A DNA stretch of 44,692 nt, taken from the IMG/VR virus record IMGVR_UViG_3300029263_000582; one strand, written 5' to 3'. This DNA comes from a virus. Each line of letters starts with the position of its first letter. The first letter of the stretch is position 1. The translations under genes were made by a program, and so were the position numbers. Below, piece after piece: positions 2,487 through 22,030 of the stretch. The notes under the pieces were generated by a model. The model was not told where the DNA came from and made no database searches. It was given only the letters and a program-made list of their open reading frames with translations.

Positions 2487-2544
2487 AGGAGTCCTTATTA
2501 TAAATCCTATTCGATCGAATGTGAAGGTGTTAAACCCCTTGGTT

Positions 2545-2593
2545 TTAATGAAATAAATGAAAGTGCTCTGCTCTCAACTAAGTAGAGCACTTT
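2545..2593 (-). terminator. Intrinsic terminator after tailspike 2
   Basis: A perfect 10-bp stem, AAAGTGCTCT (2560-2569) with AGAGCACTTT (2584-2593), starts 5 nt after the stop codon. On the minus strand it is followed by the T-rich tail CATTTATTTCATT. Confidence 0.6.
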
Positions 2594-2597
2594 GTTT

Positions 2598-4841
2598 CTA
2601 GTCTTTAACTAATACATAACTGAACCCTGCCGGTAGGGTTTGAGACTTTATAAGCCTATTTTGTATACCCGTAGTGCTTGGTAGGTTTTCTACTCTAACT
2701 GTTTTGCTCCCATCAAAAGTAGCATTTGATGCAGATATAAACTCTCCATTACTTCTTAATATTCCATCAAAGTCTGAGGTGGCAACAACTCTGAGCAATC
2801 CGTTTACAGTTAATTTATCTTTGTACTCATAATCAGAACCATCAGATGATAGTTGATTTCCACTGTTTACTATCTGGTTAAAAGCGCCGCTTATAGAGCC
2901 GCCAGTATTGTAATTATAGAAAACTGCGTAAGCGTCAGATCTTGCGGTTGGAACATCAATTAAACCTACAGACGGGTTGCTTGACATTTCTATCTGAACT
3001 TTGTGACCTTTGTGTCCTAATGTTATGCCGCTCGGGGTAAGACATCTATATGCGTAGTCTACTGAACCAATTACTCGTATTTTCGGACTTACACCCCTAC
3101 TGTTAATGCTAGCACCACTTGGTGGTGTGTTTCCACCACCGATAGGTAATAGAGTGTTATCAATAGTTCCATCGTAAGCAGCAACAGCAGAACCTATAAA
3201 TGTACCTTCGATATCAATATGGAAACCCGTCCCTCTCCATGCTGAACCAACTTTTCCGTAAGAGTTTTCATTGTGTATTTTGAACCCTCGCCAAGTAACA
3301 TGTCTTGCTCGCTCGCCTATAATAACACCAGTATCTTGAGCGGCATCAAAAACTCCGTCTCCGCTGTAGTAATCTTCTTCCCCTTTACCGCAGTTGTAAG
3401 CGTACCCGCCTAGTATGTTTATGCCGCCCATTTCCCCAGAATCGGGGTCATTTGAAAAATCTGCTAAGTCAAAAAACTCAGCGTAGTGCATACAATTCCT
3501 TGCTATAGGGTTAACTACGGTAACTCGGTCTGAGGGACTCGCTACAGTACACTGATACGCATAAGCTGCGGTACAATCGATAGCTTGAGGGTTGTCAATC
3601 TGTACGTCTGTGACGTTAGATTCAACCATTATCCCCCGCCCACCGCCATTATATATGTCCGTGTGGTCAGGTTGTCTTTTGCATCTTAGAAGTACAGGTC
3701 TAGTTATTTTTATATTCGTTACAGTCCCCAACCCAGACCCGCCAACACCGATACCATTGCAACCTAAGAAGTTATCACCGTCAATAACAGGGTCTACAAG
3801 TTCTGTTAATTCATCACCTCCCTCAAAAGCCCATACTGCATAAAAAGGTGAGGTTATTCTAACCTTGCCGCCTTTTTCGAACTCTACTCTTGTCCCTGCT
3901 GGTTGGCCTAAGCCTTGTTTAAGAAGAAGCTCTCCGCTTATGACGTAATTTTTTACATTACCTTTGGTTAGGAACTCCCTGATGGCGCTTCTCTCGTACT
4001 CTACGCCTCCATAACGAACGCCAAGTTGAGATAAATCCAGCTTGCTAACACTTATTATTTTAAACTGAATACTTGCATTTTCCTCGCTTTGAATTACATC
4101 AATATCGTCCGCAGCCTCACCAGTTACAATTTCCCACTCACCACCGCCATAACCAGTACCAGCATGATACTCGTTAGTTTTAATACGGATCCCAACCATT
4201 GACTCGTCAACTTCTAGCGCTTTTAACTCGTCAATGTTTTTTACTCGGCGTGTGTAGTTTTTAGAGAGGTTGTACTTACTATAGACAGGTTCGCTAGGAA
4301 CCGTATCCTTTTCAACCTCAAACGGCAGTGCTCCGTTATAAGTCCAGATGCTGCCATCCGAATCGATACCAACATCGCCAGACTCGTTATATGTAAAGCC
4401 TTTTTCAAAGAAGCCGTACTCTCCGCTAAGCCCTTGAGATATAAGCAACGCACTGGTAATCTCAGTTAGGTCTTTAGCCTTAGCTGCACTGTTAGCTGCA
4501 CTGGTAGCCGACTGCTCTGCTGAACTAGCAGATTGCCCTGCGGACACCGCCGCTTGCTCCTCTGACTCCTGCGCTCCACCTGCCGCTTCTACAGCAGCAT
4601 CCCGTGCAGTCTTAGTATCATCAATAAAAGGTTTAACGTCACCTAGACGTACAGGCTCCTGTGAGTAAACAGGTTCAGGGAGGTTCAGGATACGCTGACT
4701 GTTCATATCTAAGTCAGTATCCAAGAAGTTAGCACCATCACCCTTGCGGTCTAGTACGTCTTCAAACGCGTCCTGTATCTTCACAAGCTCTGCGTTAATA
4801 CCTTTAAGCGAAGTCTTCGGTGTATTAGTATATCGTGCCAT
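2598..4841 (-). CDS. Tail fibre/tailspike 2 (receptor-binding protein)
   Basis: 747 aa. The N-terminal ~70 aa are paralogous to ORF 4870..6810 (MARYT.TP..L.GIN.EL.K..LDRKG..NF.D..LDMNS.R.LNLP.P...EP.R.GD). There is an A/S/E-rich linker and a second shared block (LIS.GLSG.YGFFE.GF....GDVGIDSD). The long G/N/S/T-rich C-terminal part looks beta-helix-like. Confidence 0.75.
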   Translation of the reverse strand: MARYTNTPKTSLKGINAELVKIQDAFEDVLDRKGDGANFLDTDLDMNSQRILNLPEPVYSQEPVRLGDVKPFIDDTKTARDAAVEAAGGAQESEEQAAVSAGQSASSAEQSATSAANSAAKAKDLTEITSALLISQGLSGEYGFFEKGFTYNESGDVGIDSDGSIWTYNGALPFEVEKDTVPSEPVYSKYNLSKNYTRRVKNIDELKALEVDESMVGIRIKTNEYHAGTGYGGGEWEIVTGEAADDIDVIQSEENASIQFKIISVSKLDLSQLGVRYGGVEYERSAIREFLTKGNVKNYVISGELLLKQGLGQPAGTRVEFEKGGKVRITSPFYAVWAFEGGDELTELVDPVIDGDNFLGCNGIGVGGSGLGTVTNIKITRPVLLRCKRQPDHTDIYNGGGRGIMVESNVTDVQIDNPQAIDCTAAYAYQCTVASPSDRVTVVNPIARNCMHYAEFFDLADFSNDPDSGEMGGINILGGYAYNCGKGEEDYYSGDGVFDAAQDTGVIIGERARHVTWRGFKIHNENSYGKVGSAWRGTGFHIDIEGTFIGSAVAAYDGTIDNTLLPIGGGNTPPSGASINSRGVSPKIRVIGSVDYAYRCLTPSGITLGHKGHKVQIEMSSNPSVGLIDVPTARSDAYAVFYNYNTGGSISGAFNQIVNSGNQLSSDGSDYEYKDKLTVNGLLRVVATSDFDGILRSNGEFISASNATFDGSKTVRVENLPSTTGIQNRLIKSQTLPAGFSYVLVKD

Positions 4842-4869
4842 GTGTATCCTTAATTAGTAGGTAGGGGTT

Positions 4870-6810
4870 CTACATTTGAACCCAAGATGGTCCGTTAGCA
4901 ACGAACGTTAAAACATCCCCATTACTCAGGAGTTCGTCCGCACCACTCTTTAATACGAACCTGCCTTCTCCTCCTATTGAGTGACGTATAGTAGTGAACG
5001 TATCCTTTATTAGAAGATGAAGAGTAGTACCCTCACGAAGTCCTGTACAATTAGTTATGCTAGTAGCTGAGGTGTTAGCCGTCTTAACTGACTTAACTTT
5101 AGTACCGTCATAAGTAGGGGAGTTAGCTGTCCATGTTTTTACTACAGGAGTCTCGTAACTATAATCCCTTTCCGCGTGCAGGTTATTTATGCTTAAAGCT
5201 GTAACCCCGAACTCATCTGCTGTAGTAGAGATATAAGGTAACGGGTAAGTTATGCTTACACTCTTATCTCTGTAGTCAGTAAAGGAAGTTGACATACTTA
5301 ATCCGAATGTTAAACCTGCGGCTTTAAGATTACTCTCTCCCGATAGGGTAGCACCTTTACTACTTACAGAAGTAACAGAGTCTAAGTAAACCCGGTTATT
5401 ACCTGAGTCTTTAAGGTGAATAATGTTATCGTAAGTCCCAGTAGACCTAGGTAAGAAAGACATACCTTGAATGCTTAAGTTACCGAAGTTCTCACATAAG
5501 ATAGCGCCTTGACTTCCGAAGTCTTCTGCATTACAGTTAATAGTCGTTATCTGGTAGGGCTTATTCGTAGCTAAGTCTCCGAACCAACCCCAGTACCTAT
5601 CCTCTGTAGTCTCATCAATACCGTTACAAGATACTAGTAAAGCTCTGCCTAAGATACGATAACCCGCCTTACCTACACCAACGGAGTGAGCGTAACAGTT
5701 ACTGAACTGAACTGTGTTACCGCCTAGTGTGTAGAAGCAGTGACCGTTATTACTATCCGCATCTACATGAGATACCTCAACACTGAAGGGTCTCGATATA
5801 CGAACAGTGTCGTTACCAGAGAACAGCCGAAGCCTTGATAACTTAGTCTGGAAAGTCTCTCGTGTTGCAGTCTCTAATGAGATAGCGTAGTCGCAAAACC
5901 CTGTGATCTTGAAGTCCGCTAGTTCTAGTCTGACGAATACATCCCCGTCAACCGCAATAGCACTCTTACCTCCCATGCCTACGCAGTTAATAGTTGAAGT
6001 CTCTTTACCAGCTCCTCTCCATACAGACCCTAGGCTCTTTGTTGCCCCTCGGTAGTAGATAGTATCGCTGATATCAAAGACACCCGGAGGTAATACGAAG
6101 AATCCTACATCATCAATCATCGCCTGTATAGGTAACTGGTTATCTCCCCTATCTTCCGAGAGTCCGTACCAGCGAGCGTCTAGATTAGATACGCTTTCTT
6201 TTATAACCGCAGTATTCCCATTACCTGCGTCTAGTACATCAAGACCGTTAGGCGTACCCCCTGTAACAACCTCGAACGTAGCAAGCCCACGGTCTTCTAG
6301 GATAGCTGTGTCTCCTGCCTGAAGACTCCCCTCTTGTAGCTGAGCTACTGTAAGGAATGAATAAGAGGACACACGCTCGTAGTCAGGAGAGCTAGGTGTA
6401 GTACCAGCAGTAACAGTAGCGCTGCCTGTGCCTAGAAGCCAGAGCTTGTTATCTGAATCAATACCTACGTCTCCCTCGTTAACGAAGCTGAAGCCTTGTT
6501 CGAAGAATCCATAGTTACCTGATAAGCCTTTAGAGATTAAGAACTCTTTAATACTTAAGTAAGTGTCTTGAGCGTATTCGAAACTTATGTTCGAACCAGT
6601 AGCTAAGTCACCTCTTCGTAAAGGCTCTTGGTCTGTTAAAGGAGCAGGTAGGTTAAGAACCCTACGTGAGTTCATGTCAAGATTAGCATCCATGAAGTTA
6701 GGAGTAACCCCTTTACGGTCAAGGGTGTCCTTCATAGCTAATTCGACCTTAGCTAGTTCGTTATTAATACCTTGTAGAGTACTAACGGGTGTACGTGTAT
6801 AACGTGCCAT
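4870..6810 (-). CDS. Tail fibre/tailspike 1 (receptor-binding protein)
   Basis: 646 aa. It shares the N-terminal anchor module and the GLSGNYGFFEQGF block with ORF 2598..4841, but the C-terminal two thirds are unrelated. The RBS context is nearly identical to that of the paralogue (TAAGGA.ACAC.ATGGCACG.TATAC). Confidence 0.75.
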   Translation of the reverse strand: MARYTRTPVSTLQGINNELAKVELAMKDTLDRKGVTPNFMDANLDMNSRRVLNLPAPLTDQEPLRRGDLATGSNISFEYAQDTYLSIKEFLISKGLSGNYGFFEQGFSFVNEGDVGIDSDNKLWLLGTGSATVTAGTTPSSPDYERVSSYSFLTVAQLQEGSLQAGDTAILEDRGLATFEVVTGGTPNGLDVLDAGNGNTAVIKESVSNLDARWYGLSEDRGDNQLPIQAMIDDVGFFVLPPGVFDISDTIYYRGATKSLGSVWRGAGKETSTINCVGMGGKSAIAVDGDVFVRLELADFKITGFCDYAISLETATRETFQTKLSRLRLFSGNDTVRISRPFSVEVSHVDADSNNGHCFYTLGGNTVQFSNCYAHSVGVGKAGYRILGRALLVSCNGIDETTEDRYWGWFGDLATNKPYQITTINCNAEDFGSQGAILCENFGNLSIQGMSFLPRSTGTYDNIIHLKDSGNNRVYLDSVTSVSSKGATLSGESNLKAAGLTFGLSMSTSFTDYRDKSVSITYPLPYISTTADEFGVTALSINNLHAERDYSYETPVVKTWTANSPTYDGTKVKSVKTANTSATSITNCTGLREGTTLHLLIKDTFTTIRHSIGGEGRFVLKSGADELLSNGDVLTFVANGPSWVQM

Positions 6811-12064: not shown

Positions 12065-12234
12065 TCATTACATTAGCGGCAGCTATTATCTTTATGATAA
12101 CGATAACCGTGTACATAGTACGTCTAGTATGGGAAGTCTTAACAGACATAGCCGCTAGGTGTGGCCCTTGGTACGCTAGCTTAGCGTTATTATTATTCTT
12201 ATCAGCAGTAGCATTTATATCTCATACGACTTAG
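12055..12234 (+). CDS. Hypothetical 59-aa two-TM protein (not in track)
   Basis: Hand translation: MEVIITLAAAIIFMITITVYIVRLVWEVLTDIAARCGPWYASLALLLFLSAVAFISHTT. It overlaps the previous stop. Confidence 0.5.
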   Translation: MEVIITLAAAIIFMITITVYIVRLVWEVLTDIAARCGPWYASLALLLFLSAVAFISHTT

Positions 12235-12242
12235 GAAACAAC

Positions 12243-12653
12243 ATGGATTTATCTAATCAATTAGTTAATAACAACGTAGCTGTATACGGTACACTCCGTG
12301 CAGGCTGCGGTAATCATCATATCTTAGAAGGGTTAACGTTCAAGCGTGATGTTATCCAAGGCTTTAAGATGTACGACCTCGGCGGCTTCCCTTATGTGGT
12401 ACATACAGGAGACCATGACGACAGCATAGCAGTAGAGGTGTACGAAGTACCTGACTATGACACAGCCCGTCGTCTTGACGGCCTTGAAGGTTATCACCAT
12501 ACACAGGGGTTCACTGGATTCTATAACCGAATCAAGGTACGTACTGCACTAGGAACAGAGGTGTACCTGTACGTATTCCCTCAGCATGAAGGGGAAGACG
12601 AGATAGAGTCAGGTGATTGGGTGTACCATACTAACCAGCGAGGTTGGCTGTAA
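12243..12653 (+). CDS. Gamma-glutamyl cyclotransferase-like (GGCT/AIG2 family) protein
   Basis: VAVYGTLRAGCGNHH, GFPYVV, VEVYEV and LDGLEGY match the YGTL...G / LD.LEG signature of the family. Confidence 0.8.
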   Translation: MDLSNQLVNNNVAVYGTLRAGCGNHHILEGLTFKRDVIQGFKMYDLGGFPYVVHTGDHDDSIAVEVYEVPDYDTARRLDGLEGYHHTQGFTGFYNRIKVRTALGTEVYLYVFPQHEGEDEIESGDWVYHTNQRGWL

Positions 12654-18195: not shown

Positions 18196-18383
18196 ATAAA
18201 GGATCAACAGAAGCAAAGAGCTACTCCCTGTGCAGGATATTCAACAGAGAATCGGATGACGTAATAGATAGGTTCGTTATAGATTCTTACTTTAAGGACA
18301 GCGTTAGGAAGAAACATAATACCAGCACAACTTATGTTAGGTTCACAACTGCACGTAATGCACGTACTAAGGATATCTTTTGA
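18192..18383 (+). CDS. Hypothetical protein
   Basis: 63-aa ORF, translationally coupled on both sides. Confidence 0.5.
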   Translation: MNKGSTEAKSYSLCRIFNRESDDVIDRFVIDSYFKDSVRKKHNTSTTYVRFTTARNARTKDIF

Positions 18384-18601
18384 TTATATACACATCACTT
18401 ACTTGCAAGCCATGCAAGGAACTTAAAGAGGAGCTCAAGGGGTACGACGTACAACCTGAGTACGTAACCTTACCTAACCCAGAGGTTGACCATGCTGCAC
18501 TAGGTATACGTACTGTACCTACTATGATTCATGGTAACTACTTCAGGTCGGGGTACGATAATATTATAGGATACGTACAAGAGAACTACGAGGAGGTATG
18601 A
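18380..18601 (+). CDS. Glutaredoxin/thioredoxin-fold CxxC protein
   Basis: TTG start (TTGA overlap, AAGGA RBS). IIYTSLTCKPCKELKEEL followed by VPTMI is typical of a small glutaredoxin-like fold. Confidence 0.6.
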   Translation: MIIYTSLTCKPCKELKEELKGYDVQPEYVTLPNPEVDHAALGIRTVPTMIHGNYFRSGYDNIIGYVQENYEEV

Positions 18602-18675
18602 TGTTCGAGAACCTTTATGATAAACACCCACCACCTAAGAAGAAACCTGTTCAACCTAAACCTAAGGAGGACTAA
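18598..18675 (+). CDS. Possible 25-aa coupling micro-ORF
   Basis: MMFENLYDKHPPPKKKPVQPKPKED. It bridges the gap exactly, with ATGA and TAATG overlaps. It may only serve translational coupling. Confidence 0.25.
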   Translation: MMFENLYDKHPPPKKKPVQPKPKED

Positions 18676-19615
18676 TGGCTGGTGTACAGATAGATAGTAT
18701 ACCTCATTCCTGTGGAGGTAGTACTAAGGTCTTCGATGACCAAGGTAAGATAACAGGGTACTGCTTCAGCTGTGGTACGTTCGACCCTGACCCTTATAAA
18801 GATAAGCCCGAAGGGTACAAGCCACCTGAACCTAAGCGTCAGTCAGCTGAGGATATACAGGAAAAGATTAATGAAATCAAAGAGCTAACAACTGTTGATG
18901 ACACAGCCCGTAAGCTAGGAGCTAAGTCCCTTGGTTACTTCGGTATCAAGACTCAGCTCAGTGAGTACGACGGCTCAACAATCACAGCTAAGTTCTACCC
19001 TTATACAACTGACGGTGTGCTGACTGCATGGAAGTGCAAGACTCACGACAAGAAGTTCTTTAGTATAGGAGACATGAAGAACTGTGACCCATTCGGTTGG
19101 GAGCAGGCGATGCGTTCCGATAACTACACCCTGTTCATAACAGAGGGAGAGGATGACGCGGCTGCTTTACTTAAAGCCTTGATGCCTAACTGGAACAAGG
19201 ATAAACCTCCTGCTATTATCAGTACATCCTCTGGTGCAACAGGGGTTAAGAGTATTACTCGACGTGCTGATACTATTAACCGTAGGTTCAAGCAGGTAGT
19301 ACTGGTCTTCGACCAAGATGATGCAGGTGCAGCAGGGGCAAGGAAGGTAGCAGGTCTCTTAGAGAACTGCAAGGCAGCATCCTTTGAACTCAAGGACGCT
19401 AACGACATGGTCAAGGCAGGGCGAGGCGACGAGCTAGCTAAGGCTGTGATGTACGAAGGTAAGCCTATGGTATCAGGTAAGTGCGTCCGCTCTTCTGATG
19501 CATGGCACTTAGCTGAGGCTAAGGTAGAGTGGGGGCTTGACTGGCCTTGGCCTACGATGACAGAGAAGACACGAGGACGACGACGAGGGGAGGTGTATTA
19601 CTTCGGCTCCGGTGT
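18675..19615 (+). CDS. Primase-helicase (T7 gp4-like), exon 1
   Basis: Zinc-finger cysteines (HSCGG...CFSCG). TOPRIM motifs FITEGEDDAAAL and VLVFDQDDAG. The ORF runs into the helicase P-loop (EVYYFGSGV) and then hits a stop inside the intron. Confidence 0.85.
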
Positions 19616-19926
19616 TTGTAATTAAGCATCATTCAACCGTGAGGTTGTCTAAAGAACTACGTGAACTCAGGGGAACTCTAGAACAGACAATCCTGAGCGA
19701 AGCCTTGAGATTAGTTTTATGTAGGAAAACAGTAAGACACCTTACACATAAGTAAAGGTTCTAATCTAAGGAACGTGCAACGACTATCCCGTAAGGGAGT
19801 ACACTCAAGTGAGTGGAAGCGCGTAGCCCTCAGAAATGAGGTGATGATATAGTCTAGTCTGCATGGGGACATGCAGCAGTTCATAAGAGAACGGGCTAGG
19901 AGTAACGACCCTAGTCGAATGTAACG
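19616..19926 (+). ncRNA. Group I intron 1 (ORF-less, resembles the T4 td intron, 311 nt)
   Basis: P1: 19611-GGUGUUU pairs with AAGCAUC-19630, with a U19615.G19626 wobble. GGGGAAC...AGACAAUCC core. P7: GACUAU (19782-87) with AUAGUC (19849-54) inside GAUAUAGUC. CUGCAUG-GGGA-CAUGCAG hairpin (19859-76). Terminal G at 19926. Stops in all frames. Confidence 0.8.
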
Positions 19927-20449
19927 AAAAATGGGTAAGAGTGTAGTAGTTGACCAGATGGCTGCGTTCTTTGCAGCTACTCAGGATACACCTGTTATGC
20001 TAGTCAAGCCAGAAGAGTCAGTACCTAATACCCTTAAGCGTCTAGCTGGTAAGGCTGCACGTAAGGTGCTATGGGACCCGAAGGTTCCTTATGAGAAAGA
20101 GGACTTCGATAAAGGTAAAGCTATCATCGGCAGTAACGCTATAGTCTTTGACTCCTATCAGGAGATACGGTGGGCTGACGTTAAGAAAGAGATACGTACT
20201 AACGTAGAGGTATGCGGTGTAAAGGATGTGTTCCTTGACCCACTGACCTGTTTCACAGTAGGTATGCCTATGTCAGTAGCTAACGAAGAGCTTATCAGTA
20301 TAGCCTCAGAGATAGCTACTATGGCTAAGGAGCTGGACTTCACAGCTTACTTGTTCTGTCACCTTAACGCCCCTCAGTCAGGGCTACCTCACGAACGTGG
20401 TGGTGCAGTACAGAGTCAACAGTTCAGTGGCTCACGAGCTATGATGCGT
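19927..20449 (+). CDS. Primase-helicase, exon 2
   Basis: The junction gives ...FGSGV-KMGKSVVVDQ (P-loop). Walker B-like DVFLDPLT, then FCHLN and FSGSRAMMR. It ends on U20449. Confidence 0.85.
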
Positions 20450-20682
20450 CAAAGGCGCATGTAAAACCAATCTAATTCAGGGAAACCCTATCAGAAATGA
20501 GGGCAATCCTGAGCGAAGCCTTAACAGGAACGTGCAGAGACTATCGAAAGCAGAAGGTTAACACCTGAGAAGTGAGTAGAGTAGGGACGACAGGAGTTAT
20601 CCCGAAACGGTTGGGCTACGAGAGTAGCGTGATATAGTCCGATACTTGTAGTAATACAAGACGTAAGGATACTAACATATTG
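20450..20682 (+). ncRNA. Group I intron 2 (ORF-less, 233 nt)
   Basis: P1: 20444-AUGCGU pairs with GCGCAU-20460, with a U20449.G20455 wobble. It shares the CAAUCCUGAGCGAAGCCUU core with intron 1. P7: GACUAU (20539-44) with AUAGUC (20634-39). GCUAC-GAGA-GUAGC and CUUGUA-GUAA-UACAAG tetraloop hairpins. Terminal G at 20682. Confidence 0.8.
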
Positions 20683-20874
20683 TTTTGCCATCAGATGTGG
20701 GGACTAGAGGGTAACAAAGACCCTGACTTACCTGATGAACTACGTAACTGCCGTGACTTAGTGCTCCTAGAAGACCGTAACTTCGGCGAGTCAGGTCGTA
20801 TTAAGATGCAGTACCATTCAACTACAGGTTGCCTTGAAGAGATGCAGCCTAACTTTGGAGAGCACGATGATTGA
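20683..20874 (+). CDS. Primase-helicase, exon 3
   Basis: The junction SGSRAMMR-FCHQMWGLEGNKD aligns from memory with T7 gp4 [21 protein letters not shown]. Exons total 1656 nt, giving 551 aa in frame. Confidence 0.8.
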   Translation, partial: FCHQMWGLEGNKDPDLPDELRNCRDLVLLEDRNFGESGRIKMQYHSTTGCLEEMQPNFGEHDD

Positions 20875-21124
20875 ACTACTAGACGAGGACGACTACGGCT
20901 ATGAAGAAGGAGTTAGCTTCCCTATATACTTACCAGACTGTGCTCTACGAGCAGAGGGGGATGTCTTTATTGAGGTCGCAGGAGAGGCGCTTGGGGAGTT
21001 CTTCGAGAGAGAAGATACTTACCCCTTCCGTGTAAGAAGCGCTCGTATAGTACCAGAGCTACCTCTTAACCAAGTAATAGGCATCCCCTCGTTAAAGGGT
21101 AGGATATTTGGAGAACAAGAATGA
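20867..21124 (+). CDS. Small acidic-tailed protein, paralogue 2 of 3
   Basis: ATG at 20867 inside ATGATTGA, which overlaps the helicase stop. MIELLDEDDYGYEEGVSFPIYLPDC...PELPLNQVIGIPSLKGRIFGEQE. Confidence 0.75.
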   Translation: MIELLDEDDYGYEEGVSFPIYLPDCALRAEGDVFIEVAGEALGEFFEREDTYPFRVRSARIVPELPLNQVIGIPSLKGRIFGEQE

Positions 21125-21783
21125 CAGAAGTAGAGAGTAAGTTCCCTACCGTAATAACACCTGAGGTATTCAGCTCCTTGTACGAGACACTAGAGAAGGA
21201 TGTCCTCTGGTTCTGTGGCAACAAGGGTATACCTGCTGATGATAGACCTGATGTCTTTCATGACTGCATGGAGAAAGTATGGGCTGACCGTGAGATGTTC
21301 ACTCGTATGGGTAACGGTCGTTCTCCTGCTACCTTTATGTACCTTAAGTTACGTACAGCAGTAATGGAGTACTTTAACTGGGTTAACACAGGGACTAAGT
21401 CAGGTAACACACAGTCCAAGGTTAAGATTAATACGTACCTTAACTCTTACGAAGAGATGTTCCTAGGTTACACTGACTCAGACCAAGACACTAGCAGCTC
21501 TCTTAGTCTACAGTACGAGCAGCTTGAACCTCTGAACGTAGGGTACGCTGAGGTCTTTAAGATACTTGATAAGATGCCTGACCTTCTACGAGAGTACGTA
21601 GTCTGTAAGGCTGAGGTAGATACAGGCGGTACTAACAGCTCACGTAAGGAACTAACAGCCCTTATGTTAGAGCGTGGGCTACCAGTACGAATGCGTAACG
21701 AAGTCTCTAAGTTCCCTACAGTAGATGCTTATGAGTCAAGACTTCGTACGTTCTTAACATCTAAGGAGATACGGAATGATTGA
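21121..21783 (+). CDS. Possible sigma-70-family (ECF-like) transcription factor
   Basis: 220 aa. DVFHDCMEKVWADREMF...ATFMYLKLRTAVMEYF resembles sigma region 2. MPDLLREYVV...VDAYESRLRTFL resembles region 4. SKFPTV occurs at both ends. The motif match is weak and from memory. Confidence 0.35.
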   Translation: MTEVESKFPTVITPEVFSSLYETLEKDVLWFCGNKGIPADDRPDVFHDCMEKVWADREMFTRMGNGRSPATFMYLKLRTAVMEYFNWVNTGTKSGNTQSKVKINTYLNSYEEMFLGYTDSDQDTSSSLSLQYEQLEPLNVGYAEVFKILDKMPDLLREYVVCKAEVDTGGTNSSRKELTALMLERGLPVRMRNEVSKFPTVDAYESRLRTFLTSKEIRND

Positions 21784-22030
21784 GCTTAAGAGTAATCAGT
21801 CTTGGGGGTTCGAGGTTGGAACTAAATTCCCTGTGTACCTCCCTGATTGTGCAGTAGTAGAGAAGGATAGCAGGATGTCTTATATATTAGGAGAGTTCTT
21901 AGGCAGATGCTTCGCACCGACAGAGGTGTACGGTTTTACAAACGACCAGCTAAGAGTTGCCCCTGAACTGCCCCTTAACCACGTCATCGGCATACCATCG
22001 TTAGAAGGTAAGATATTCGAGGAGGATTAA
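21776..22030 (+). CDS. Small acidic-tailed protein, paralogue 3 of 3
   Basis: ATGATTGA overlap with the upstream stop. MIELKSNQSWGFEVGTKFPVYLPDC...PELPLNHVIGIPSLEGKIFEED. Confidence 0.75.
   Translation: MIELKSNQSWGFEVGTKFPVYLPDCAVVEKDSRMSYILGEFLGRCFAPTEVYGFTNDQLRVAPELPLNHVIGIPSLEGKIFEED

Follow-up and report, generated by a model that had tools for sequence, protein, structure and literature searches.

Why should the replicative helicase gene of a phage appear to break off inside its own Walker A motif (P-loop)? The question is raised by the viral genome IMGVR_UViG_3300029263_000582 from IMG/VR, a stretch of 44,692 nucleotides (nt) analysed as a whole and called the window hereafter. On its plus strand, an open reading frame (ORF) encoding a primase (18675-19625) ends in ...EVYYFGSGV followed by CN-stop, and the following ORF (19931-20464) begins with MGKSVVVDQ. 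An earlier note had pointed to these boundaries and to stops in every frame between them, and had proposed that a group I intron splits the P-loop of one primase-helicase gene. The ORF list confirms the boundaries, and the 305 nt between the ORFs (19626-19930) contain stops in all three frames (9, 9 and 8, respectively). Our data support the reading that positions 19616-19926 are an ORF-less self-splicing group I intron of the td-like subgroup IA2 in the primase-helicase mRNA, and we put the probability of this reading at about 0.93.

The window, a circularly permuted and apparently complete genome of a marine phage, is related to Pseudoalteromonas phage RIO-1 (KC751414; Zobellviridae, Melvirus), with block-by-block nucleotide identities of 83-98%. 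On either side of the proposed intron the two genomes are collinear, and RIO-1 carries 7 nt in place of window 19610-19927 (318 nt). The RIO-1 sequence at this point, GGC TCA GGG GTG AAG ATG GGT AAG AGT (GSGVKMGKS), is a natural intron-less allele. A second intron, already annotated in RIO-1, lies further downstream in the same gene, which gives the following gene model:

18675-19615, plus strand: exon 1 of the primase-helicase gene, with zinc motif, TOPRIM primase domain, linker, and helicase up to nucleotide 2 of the Walker A valine codon
19616-19926, plus strand: intron 1, group I, IA2 (T4 td-like), 311 nt, no ORF; supported by Rfam, absence from RIO-1, covariation and minimum free energy (MFE) folding
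19926-19926, plus strand: terminal guanosine (omega G) of intron 1, with the 3' splice site directly after it
19927-20449, plus strand: exon 2, from Walker A (A AAA ATG GGT AAG AGT) to motif H4
20450-20682, plus strand: intron 2, group I, ORF-less, 233 nt; 100% identical to RIO-1 12129-12361; Rfam score 57.9 bits
20683-20874, plus strand: exon 3, stop codon included

The splice sites of intron 1 follow from the comparison with RIO-1, whose sequence is restored only by an excision of 311 nt. Among the registers that restore it, only 19615/19926 combines a U.G wobble at the 5' splice site with a terminal G. The register 19616/19927 restores the protein as well, but it would place a U-A pair at the 5' splice site and leave a terminal A, and was rejected. 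Cutting after U19615 and after G19926, as proposed beforehand, is in frame and yields EVYYFGSGVKMGKS, with the protein GSGVKMGKS as in RIO-1. In an alignment of 10 introns (see below), G19926 aligns column for column with the terminal G of T4 td, which was located by means of the reading frame of the T4 td exons, and with that of six other introns; all 10 introns have G in the last alignment column. Excision of the orthologous intron of HSd1-k141_2165608 (HSd1 hereafter) at the same site gives GAGVKMGKS. The 3' splice site, which the earlier note had marked as inferred, is thus fixed by three independent lines: protein identity with RIO-1, terminal-G homology and the HSd1 ortholog.

The Rfam group I covariance model (RF00028), named beforehand as a check, matches 19606-19876 with 75.5 bits (gathering score 50; E 1.7e-17) over the full model (1-253). 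The same model matches the HSd1 ortholog (83.3 bits) and an ortholog on the contig L049 (69.9 bits). It stops at P9 (19876) and gives no 3' boundary, so the boundaries were set from the intron-less allele and from homology.

With both introns removed, the coding sequence (CDS) has 1656 nt and encodes 551 amino acids, about 99% identical to RIO-1 gp18 (three residue differences, plus a one-residue difference at the C-terminus). Exon 1 is 97.7% identical to RIO-1 gp18, and the Toprim Pfam matches are found on the spliced product: Toprim_2 and Toprim score above threshold, and DnaB_C reaches 25.5 bits, slightly below its 27-bit threshold. In a phmmer comparison with the T7 gp4 structures 5ikn, 6n7i and 1q57, the spliced product aligns over residues 112-541 (E 1.5e-24), unbroken over both junctions. 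Here GEVYYFGSGVKMGKS stands opposite T7 gp4 GEVIMVTSGSGMGKS without a gap, which bears out the claim that the split lies in the P-loop with the spacing of T7 gp4. Counting along the alignment, the aligned lysine is T7 K318, which is the Walker A lysine. By this alignment intron 1 splits a codon four residues upstream of the Walker A lysine, within Walker A itself.

The spliced exons differ from RIO-1 by 47 nucleotide changes, with only 3 amino-acid changes and the one-residue C-terminal difference; judged by these counts, they are under strong purifying selection. The product is the sole gp4-type replicative helicase in the window genome. Public contigs that encode the exact 316-amino-acid product of the exon-1 ORF number at least 24 and come from JGI sample 3300031569, from Tara Oceans and from Logan assemblies of SRA data. 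An intron 1 identical to that of the window was found on four of the five contigs inspected; these four are near-genome-length, independent and from different samples. The primase-helicase exons (window 18381-20870) are also the block closest to RIO-1 (97.7-98.0% vs 83-95% elsewhere), a similarity that is compatible with a recent exchange of this region between phages.

What kind of group I intron is this? The homologs used for comparison were the introns of HSd1, KZY1-k141_1938105 (KZY1), the Klebsiella phages vB_Kp_Z1 and RCIP0099, the DNA polymerase gene of coliphage G2285, three metagenomic contigs and T4 td (NC_000866). The 10 sequences were aligned with MAFFT and we assigned the helices; 500 column shuffles and partners slid by 1-3 columns served as controls. 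The helices of intron 1 are:

19611-19630, plus strand: P1 hairpin, 19611-19618 with 19623-19630; U19615.G19626 wobble, 5' splice site after U19615
19634-19647, plus strand: P2 hairpin, CAACC-GUGA-GGUUG with a GNRA loop; the L049 loop GCGA is still GNRA
19657-19663, plus strand: P3 5' strand CUACGUG, partner 19820-19826; both-side changes in 4 of 7 pairs
19667-19696, plus strand: P4 and P5, with P4 (19667-72/19691-96) around P5 (19677-79/19685-87)
19697-19776, plus strand: P6 (19697-98/19775-76) and a long P6a, stem 19703-06/19708-14 with 19762-71
19782-19787, plus strand: P7 5' strand GACUAU, partner AUAGUC at 19849-19854; pseudoknot with P3
19788-19815, plus strand: P7.1 (19788-90/19795-97) and P7.2 (19802-06/19811-15), between P7 and P3'; hallmark of subgroup IA
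19820-19826, plus strand: P3 3' strand CGCGUAG, from the covariation alignment
19828-19841, plus strand: P8 hairpin, CCUCA-GAAA-UGAGG
19849-19854, plus strand: P7 3' strand AUAGUC, inside the conserved GAUAUAGUC
19859-19876, plus strand: P9 hairpin, CUGCAUG-GGGA-CAUGCAG, near-identical to T4 td
19879-19916, plus strand: P9.1 (19879-82/19889-92) and P9.2 (19894-19900/19910-16)

The elements that the earlier note had picked out, namely P1 with U19615.G19626, the core stretch GGGGAACUCUAGAACAGACAAUCCUGAGCGAAGCC (19670-19704), the P7 pairing and the CUGCAUG-GGGA-CAUGCAG hairpin, all lie where it had placed them. The internal guide sequence is 19626-19630, preceded by an in-frame UAA at 19623-19625. 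An unconstrained MFE fold of 19606-19935 recovers P1, P2, P3-P6, P7.1, P7.2, P8, P9, P9.1 and P9.2, and its stability (z = -3.5) was reached by none of 100 shuffles.

Over the 10 introns, standard pairs occupy 95.0% of cells, compared to 81.1% in the shuffled alignments and 31-42% with slid partners. Changes on both sides are seen in 27 of 55 pairs, and the covariation score is 0.404 vs 0.149 shuffled (0/500 shuffles as high). On four of five measures no shuffle matches the observed value, on the fifth only 1/500 does. The pairs with both-side changes are spread over P3 (4), P4 (2), P5 (2), P7.1 (1), P7.2 (4/5), P9 (2), P9.1 (2) and P9.2 (6/7); P4 and P5 are paired in 100% of cells. P8 forms its own hairpin in each homolog, varying in length and sequence, and its columns align poorly (66% of cells paired). 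P7, the guanosine-binding helix by homology with td, is uninformative for covariation since it is near-invariant: five of its six pairs are identical in all 10 introns, and the sixth is unpaired in one sequence. P1 was tested for each intron with the exon to which that intron belongs. In every case P1 forms and has U.G at the splice site, and the guide covaries with the exon, GGUGU/GCAUC in the window against GGCGU/GCGUC in HSd1 (exon U to C, guide A to G). Intron 1 of the window has the shared residue wherever the alignment of the 10 introns has an invariant column.

In the classification of Michel and Westhof, subgroup IA2 is defined by two hairpins, P7.1 and P7.2, that stand apart from each other between P7 and P3'. 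Intron 1 has these two hairpins, and both covary, which supports the subgroup assignment of the earlier note.

The periphery is less constant. The P6 extension, which is where the HNH genes of sister introns are located, is wholly different in HSd1 and shorter in L049, with a stem in each. The L049 intron (3942-4212, Logan ERR2843959) is a natural variant of intron 1 with 271 nt and identical exons and splice sites; besides the shorter P6 extension it has 9 nt inserted in the P9.1 loop and the P2 loop change from GUGA to GCGA, and the core is kept. In the apical P6 extension (window 19722-19738), the motif AAACAGUAAGACAC is also present in the metagenomic intron L029, whose P6 extension is otherwise divergent; the motif may be a conserved peripheral element.

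Intron 2 required a correction of its own. The RF00028 match (20380-20661, 57.9 bits) starts 70 nt too early and has the wrong P1. The true P1 pairs AUGCGU (20444-49) with GCGCAU (20455-60), with the 5' splice site after U20449 and the terminal G at 20682, as annotated in RIO-1. The intron falls at GSRAMMR/FCHQ (slashes mark insertion points throughout), opposite T7 GSGALRQ/LSD, a position that corresponds to motif H4 by our reading of the alignment. Compared to RIO-1 there are 0/233 mismatches in intron 2 and 47/1662 in the exons (P about 0.001), so intron 2 seems to be either younger than its host gene or under stronger constraint. Intron 2 is ORF-less in the window and in RIO-1, and the intron 2 copies of HSd1 (L002 3448-4008) and L049 (4882-5451) contain a gene for an HNH_3/NUMOD4 endonuclease of 186 and 189 amino acids, respectively.

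How would splicing restore the helicase? In the mechanism we propose from homology with td, P1 would bring the five bases at the exon end, GGUGU, to the internal guide sequence GCAUC. P7 would bind a free guanosine, which would attack after U19615, at the U.G wobble, and the freed 3'-OH of U19615 would then attack after the terminal G19926. Joining GU to A would recreate the valine codon of the Walker A motif GSGVKMGKS. The predicted reading of the ligated exons is ...GGCUCCGGUGU/AAAAAUGGGUAAG, with the junction GGUGU/AAAAAUG, and removal of introns 1 and 2 should give the 551-amino-acid primase-helicase of the T7 gp4 type. On unspliced RNA the in-frame UAA, eight bases inside intron 1, would halt ribosomes. 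The intron itself probably entered the lineage by homing or recombination, leaving a short altered exon tract at the junction.

The evidence for this last step lies in the distribution and in the flanks of intron 1. The distribution is sporadic: the intron is missing in RIO-1, and the gp4 genes of most Zobellviridae are uninterrupted. Between the spliced window gene and RIO-1, synonymous differences are found at -6, -3, 0 and +3 of the junction, i.e. 4/10 positions differ compared to a background of 2.3% (binomial P about 5e-5). Because only the change at -3 lies in P1, this cluster looks more like a short co-conversion tract or a target-site adaptation than the outcome of selection for P1 pairing alone. 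The pattern is consistent with homing in the past, though no proof of it, and we consider it probable that a related donor supplied the intron, through homing or recombination. Intron 1 carries no endonuclease ORF of its own (stops in all frames) and is probably an ORF-less member of a helicase P-loop intron family in which others have HNH homing endonucleases in P6.

The tblastn queries searched against the window comprised four annotated endonucleases of sister introns (three from P-loop introns, one from HSd1 intron 2), I-TevI, I-TevIII and MobE of T4, and the longest ORFs from six relatives in metagenomes. Two stronger matches were artefacts. In one the supposed "intron ORF" was helicase exon sequence, and the other (E 0.002) was a 15-residue translation of the shared ribozyme core. 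Exact-match scans of IMG/VR and a metagenome collection with the P1/P2/J2-3 segment specific to intron 1 returned no hit, which says nothing about its rarity since the JGI, Tara and Logan samples with the identical intron lie outside the scanned collections.

Several points weigh against the self-splicing intron as we read it. None of the 13 tblastn queries had a meaningful match in the window (best relevant E 0.2), which leaves present-day mobility unproven. The clustered exon differences could in part stem from selection for P1 pairing. Reading the bases 5' of the guide sequence against the 3' exon (AAAAAU) revealed no convincing P10, an element that is weak in td as well. The sequence, the structure with its covariation, the intron-less allele and the restored ORF are established here; the splicing chemistry, the activity and exact junction in vivo, and the route of acquisition we infer from them.

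Could the two ORFs simply be two genes? Primase (18675-19625) and helicase (19931 onward) would then be separate polypeptides with a 305-nt untranslated, intron-like spacer between them. Separate primase and helicase genes do exist in some phages, the HSd1 record lists three "primase/helicase" CDSs, and metagenome contigs call genes of 316 and 177 amino acids. But a helicase starting at MGKS would lack the first half of Walker A, no Shine-Dalgarno-like sequence precedes the ATG at 19931 (the upstream bases are GAAUGUAACGAAAAAUG), and the RIO-1 gene, 98% identical, is continuous at this point. The supposed spacer, moreover, matches the group I model with 75.5 bits, and compensatory changes are found in nearly all of its helices. 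We regard the split gene as hardly credible. The same structural evidence bears on a decayed intron that no longer splices, with the helicase gene a pseudogene in this genome. Such decay would fit an endonuclease ORF that was lost or never present and the want of an evident P10, yet all core helices are intact, every invariant column of the 10 introns is matched, and the Rfam score exceeds that of intron 2, which RIO-1's annotators accepted. The identical intron also occurs on at least four independent near-genome-length contigs from different samples, and the exons under strong purifying selection encode the only gp4-type replicative helicase of the genome. We therefore regard a dead intron as very improbable. 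A group II intron, an intein and a translational bypass were dismissed outright: for a bypass the 311 nt are too long, all frames are rich in stops, and the group I match is strong.

A functional intron might also do more than splice itself out. Incomplete or conditional splicing could yield a primase-only protein of 316 amino acids and set the primase:helicase ratio or the timing of the helicase. T7 itself makes two gp4 isoforms, and the in-frame stop 8 nt into the intron would give the unspliced product a defined end after zinc motif, TOPRIM domain and linker. Authors working on inteins have argued that replication proteins may keep elements in their P-loops because these serve a function (PMC4760082). 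Phage group I introns, td included, nevertheless generally have an early in-frame stop, which needs no special explanation; moreover, RIO-1 (98% identity) and most relatives manage without intron 1. A regulatory role is in our view unlikely, and we retain the ordinary self-splicing, ORF-less group I intron.

Is this P-loop an isolated target? Related introns in other phages sit at no fewer than three positions within 12 nt of the Walker A codons. Taking the window site GT/A as 0, the sites are:

Site 0, GT/A: window and HSd1; no ORF
Site +10, ATG GGT/AAR (G/KS): KZY1-k141_1938105 (553 nt) and the metagenomic L032 (725 nt); HNH
Site -2, GGT/GTT or GGT/CAG: T4S1-k141_462158 (812 nt) and L040; HNH (L040 label unconfirmed)
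Site two codons nearer GKT, GGC GT/A GGT AAG: Klebsiella phages vB_Kp_Z1 (HNH) and Roth32 (no ORF)

Pfam HNH_3 confirmed the ORFs of KZY1-k141_1938105, T4S1-k141_462158, vB_Kp_Z1 and L032; that of L040 has 120 amino acids and its HNH label is unconfirmed. The Klebsiella-phage introns share the 5-nt target GGYGU with site 0. The site-0 intron of HSd1 (L002 2506-2790) and the site +10 intron of L032 (IMGVR_UViG_3300010372_000013, oriented positions 4405-5129) are 98.8% identical over 162 nt and 97.9% over 48 nt of core, while their host exons are only 85-87% identical. With a core 98-99% identical at two sites 10 nt apart, these are essentially the same ribozyme with different P1/P2, with or without an HNH gene. 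None of the P-loop introns of HSd1, KZY1, T4S1, the Klebsiella phages, L032 and L040 is annotated as an intron in its own record.

A tentative scenario, which we hold to be possible though not probable, would make the Walker A codons a contested landing pad. One ribozyme core would have been retargeted among sites -2, 0 and +10 by swaps of P1 (and P2), and the ORF-less intron at site 0 might persist either through immunity, by disrupting the recognition sites of the HNH enzymes of its neighbours at -2 and +10, or through collaborative homing in trans, riding along whenever these enzymes cleave alleles that lack an intron. With intron 2 in motif H4, the arrangement would mirror, at the level of RNA, the pair of P-loop and H4 inteins in DnaB. 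Neighbouring inteins in MCM interfere with each other (PMC10643990), a possible analogue for closely spaced introns.

Some records of these relatives carry further peculiarities. The HNH ORF of KZY1-k141_1938105 (L022 2556-2885; intron L022 2478-3030) is mislabelled as "DNA primase/helicase"; the intron of T4S1-k141_462158 is L023 1752-2563, and the Klebsiella introns are on L027 and L026. On L044 (Ga0272412_1065927), a second copy of the core motif (GUGUGAAUUCGGGGGAACUCCAGAA) lies about 50 nt past the end of the first intron, and the two copies may be tandem introns. The exon sequence before the L044 intron, ...SSSKP/, also precedes the introns of L031 and L046 and resembles a motif of family A DNA polymerases. 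L034, a 5-kb metagenomic contig, carries a 202-nt ORF-less intron relative at 309-510 and a marginal tmRNA match at 3367-3447 (47.4 bits vs threshold 47).

What follows for annotation is plain. The essential replicative helicase of this lineage is mis-called as two or three genes in JGI, Tara and SRA-derived assemblies, and the correct gene model has three exons and one 551-amino-acid protein. Intron 1 is the second intron in a gene in which RIO-1 had one known. Existing knowledge of how group I introns work is left unchanged; the element is genuine but ordinary in kind. Three nearby sites, versions with and without an ORF, and a 98-99% identical core at two of these sites offer a compact natural system for studying target-site change, equally suited to the competition between neighbouring introns. 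The pattern of hot spot and retargeting merits a systematic survey.

Two other regions of the window deserve mention. Paralogous small ORFs of 96 and 84 amino acids lie on either side of the sigma-factor gene (20834-21124 and 21776-22030); they have FPxYLPDCA...PELPLNxVIGIPSL in common, and the first (20834-21124) lies within a 236-nt segment missing from RIO-1. A 4.1-kb segment (2487-6572) is unmatched in RIO-1. It encodes two tail-spike-like paralogs (minus-strand ORFs 2598-4841 and 4870-6810) with similar N-termini (MARYT.TP...L.GIN.EL), and compared with RIO-1 the segment has probably been exchanged as a host-range cassette.

How does intron 1 compare with known systems? Within its own gene and lineage the nearest is the annotated RIO-1 intron (KC751414 12129-12361), i.e. 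the window's intron 2, which is likewise ORF-less and matches RF00028. It occupies a different site (motif H4, 834 nt downstream), and only short core motifs are common to the two. A structural paper on RIO-1 mentions introns only in excluding one elsewhere, and in the literature searched, whose coverage was incomplete, no paper was found that reports an intron in the P-loop of gp4-type helicases, which is weak evidence of novelty.

With T4 td, intron 1 shares the order of helices, the separate P7.1 and P7.2 between P7 and P3', P9.1 and P9.2, the terminal ...AAYG and a UAA near the 5' splice site (directly after it in td, at 19623-25 here). The resemblance that the earlier note had pointed out is borne out by NC_000866, with 29/32 identical positions in J8/7-P7'-P9, 34/43 in J6/7-P7-P7.1-P7.2-P3', 25/33 in P4-P5-P6 and 26/34 from P9.2 to the end; the blocks are 76-91% identical, compared to 57.5% over the ORF-trimmed intron. 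In contrast, td resides in a thymidylate synthase gene rather than in a primase-helicase gene, its P1, P2 and P8 sequences are unrelated, and its P6 houses the GIY-YIG gene I-TevI where the ORF-less intron 1 has a structured P6 extension.

The HSd1-k141_2165608 (Melvirus) intron is an ortholog at the identical site, 285 nt long and 78% identical to intron 1. Together with those of KZY1-k141_1938105 and T4S1-k141_462158 (all Zobellviridae) and of Klebsiella phages vB_Kp_Z1, which is classified in Autographiviridae, and Roth32, it belongs to a set of P-loop introns that are 68-78% identical to intron 1. Like intron 1 they interrupt Walker A codons, have a P1 with U.G and a final G, and restore a loop of the GxxxxxGK[ST] type; they differ in insertion position, in the HNH_3 genes that several carry in P6, and in the missing P2 of the +10 introns. 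The architecture of intron 1 is nearest to that of T4 td, and its sequence is nearest to these unannotated introns of other phages.

At the level of targets, finally, the closest parallel is found in the inteins of DnaB helicases, which occupy site b in the P-loop and sites a and c of motif H4, with an intein in each of the two motifs in some genes (PMC4760082). Introns 1 and 2 hit the same two motifs, Walker A/P-loop and H4, in the same SF4 superfamily. The inteins splice at the protein level, and sequence and mechanism are unrelated; the shared preference is a convergent choice of target and not homology. Introns in the two motifs favoured by DnaB inteins make this gene a clear example of how selfish elements that are unrelated to each other can converge on common targets.

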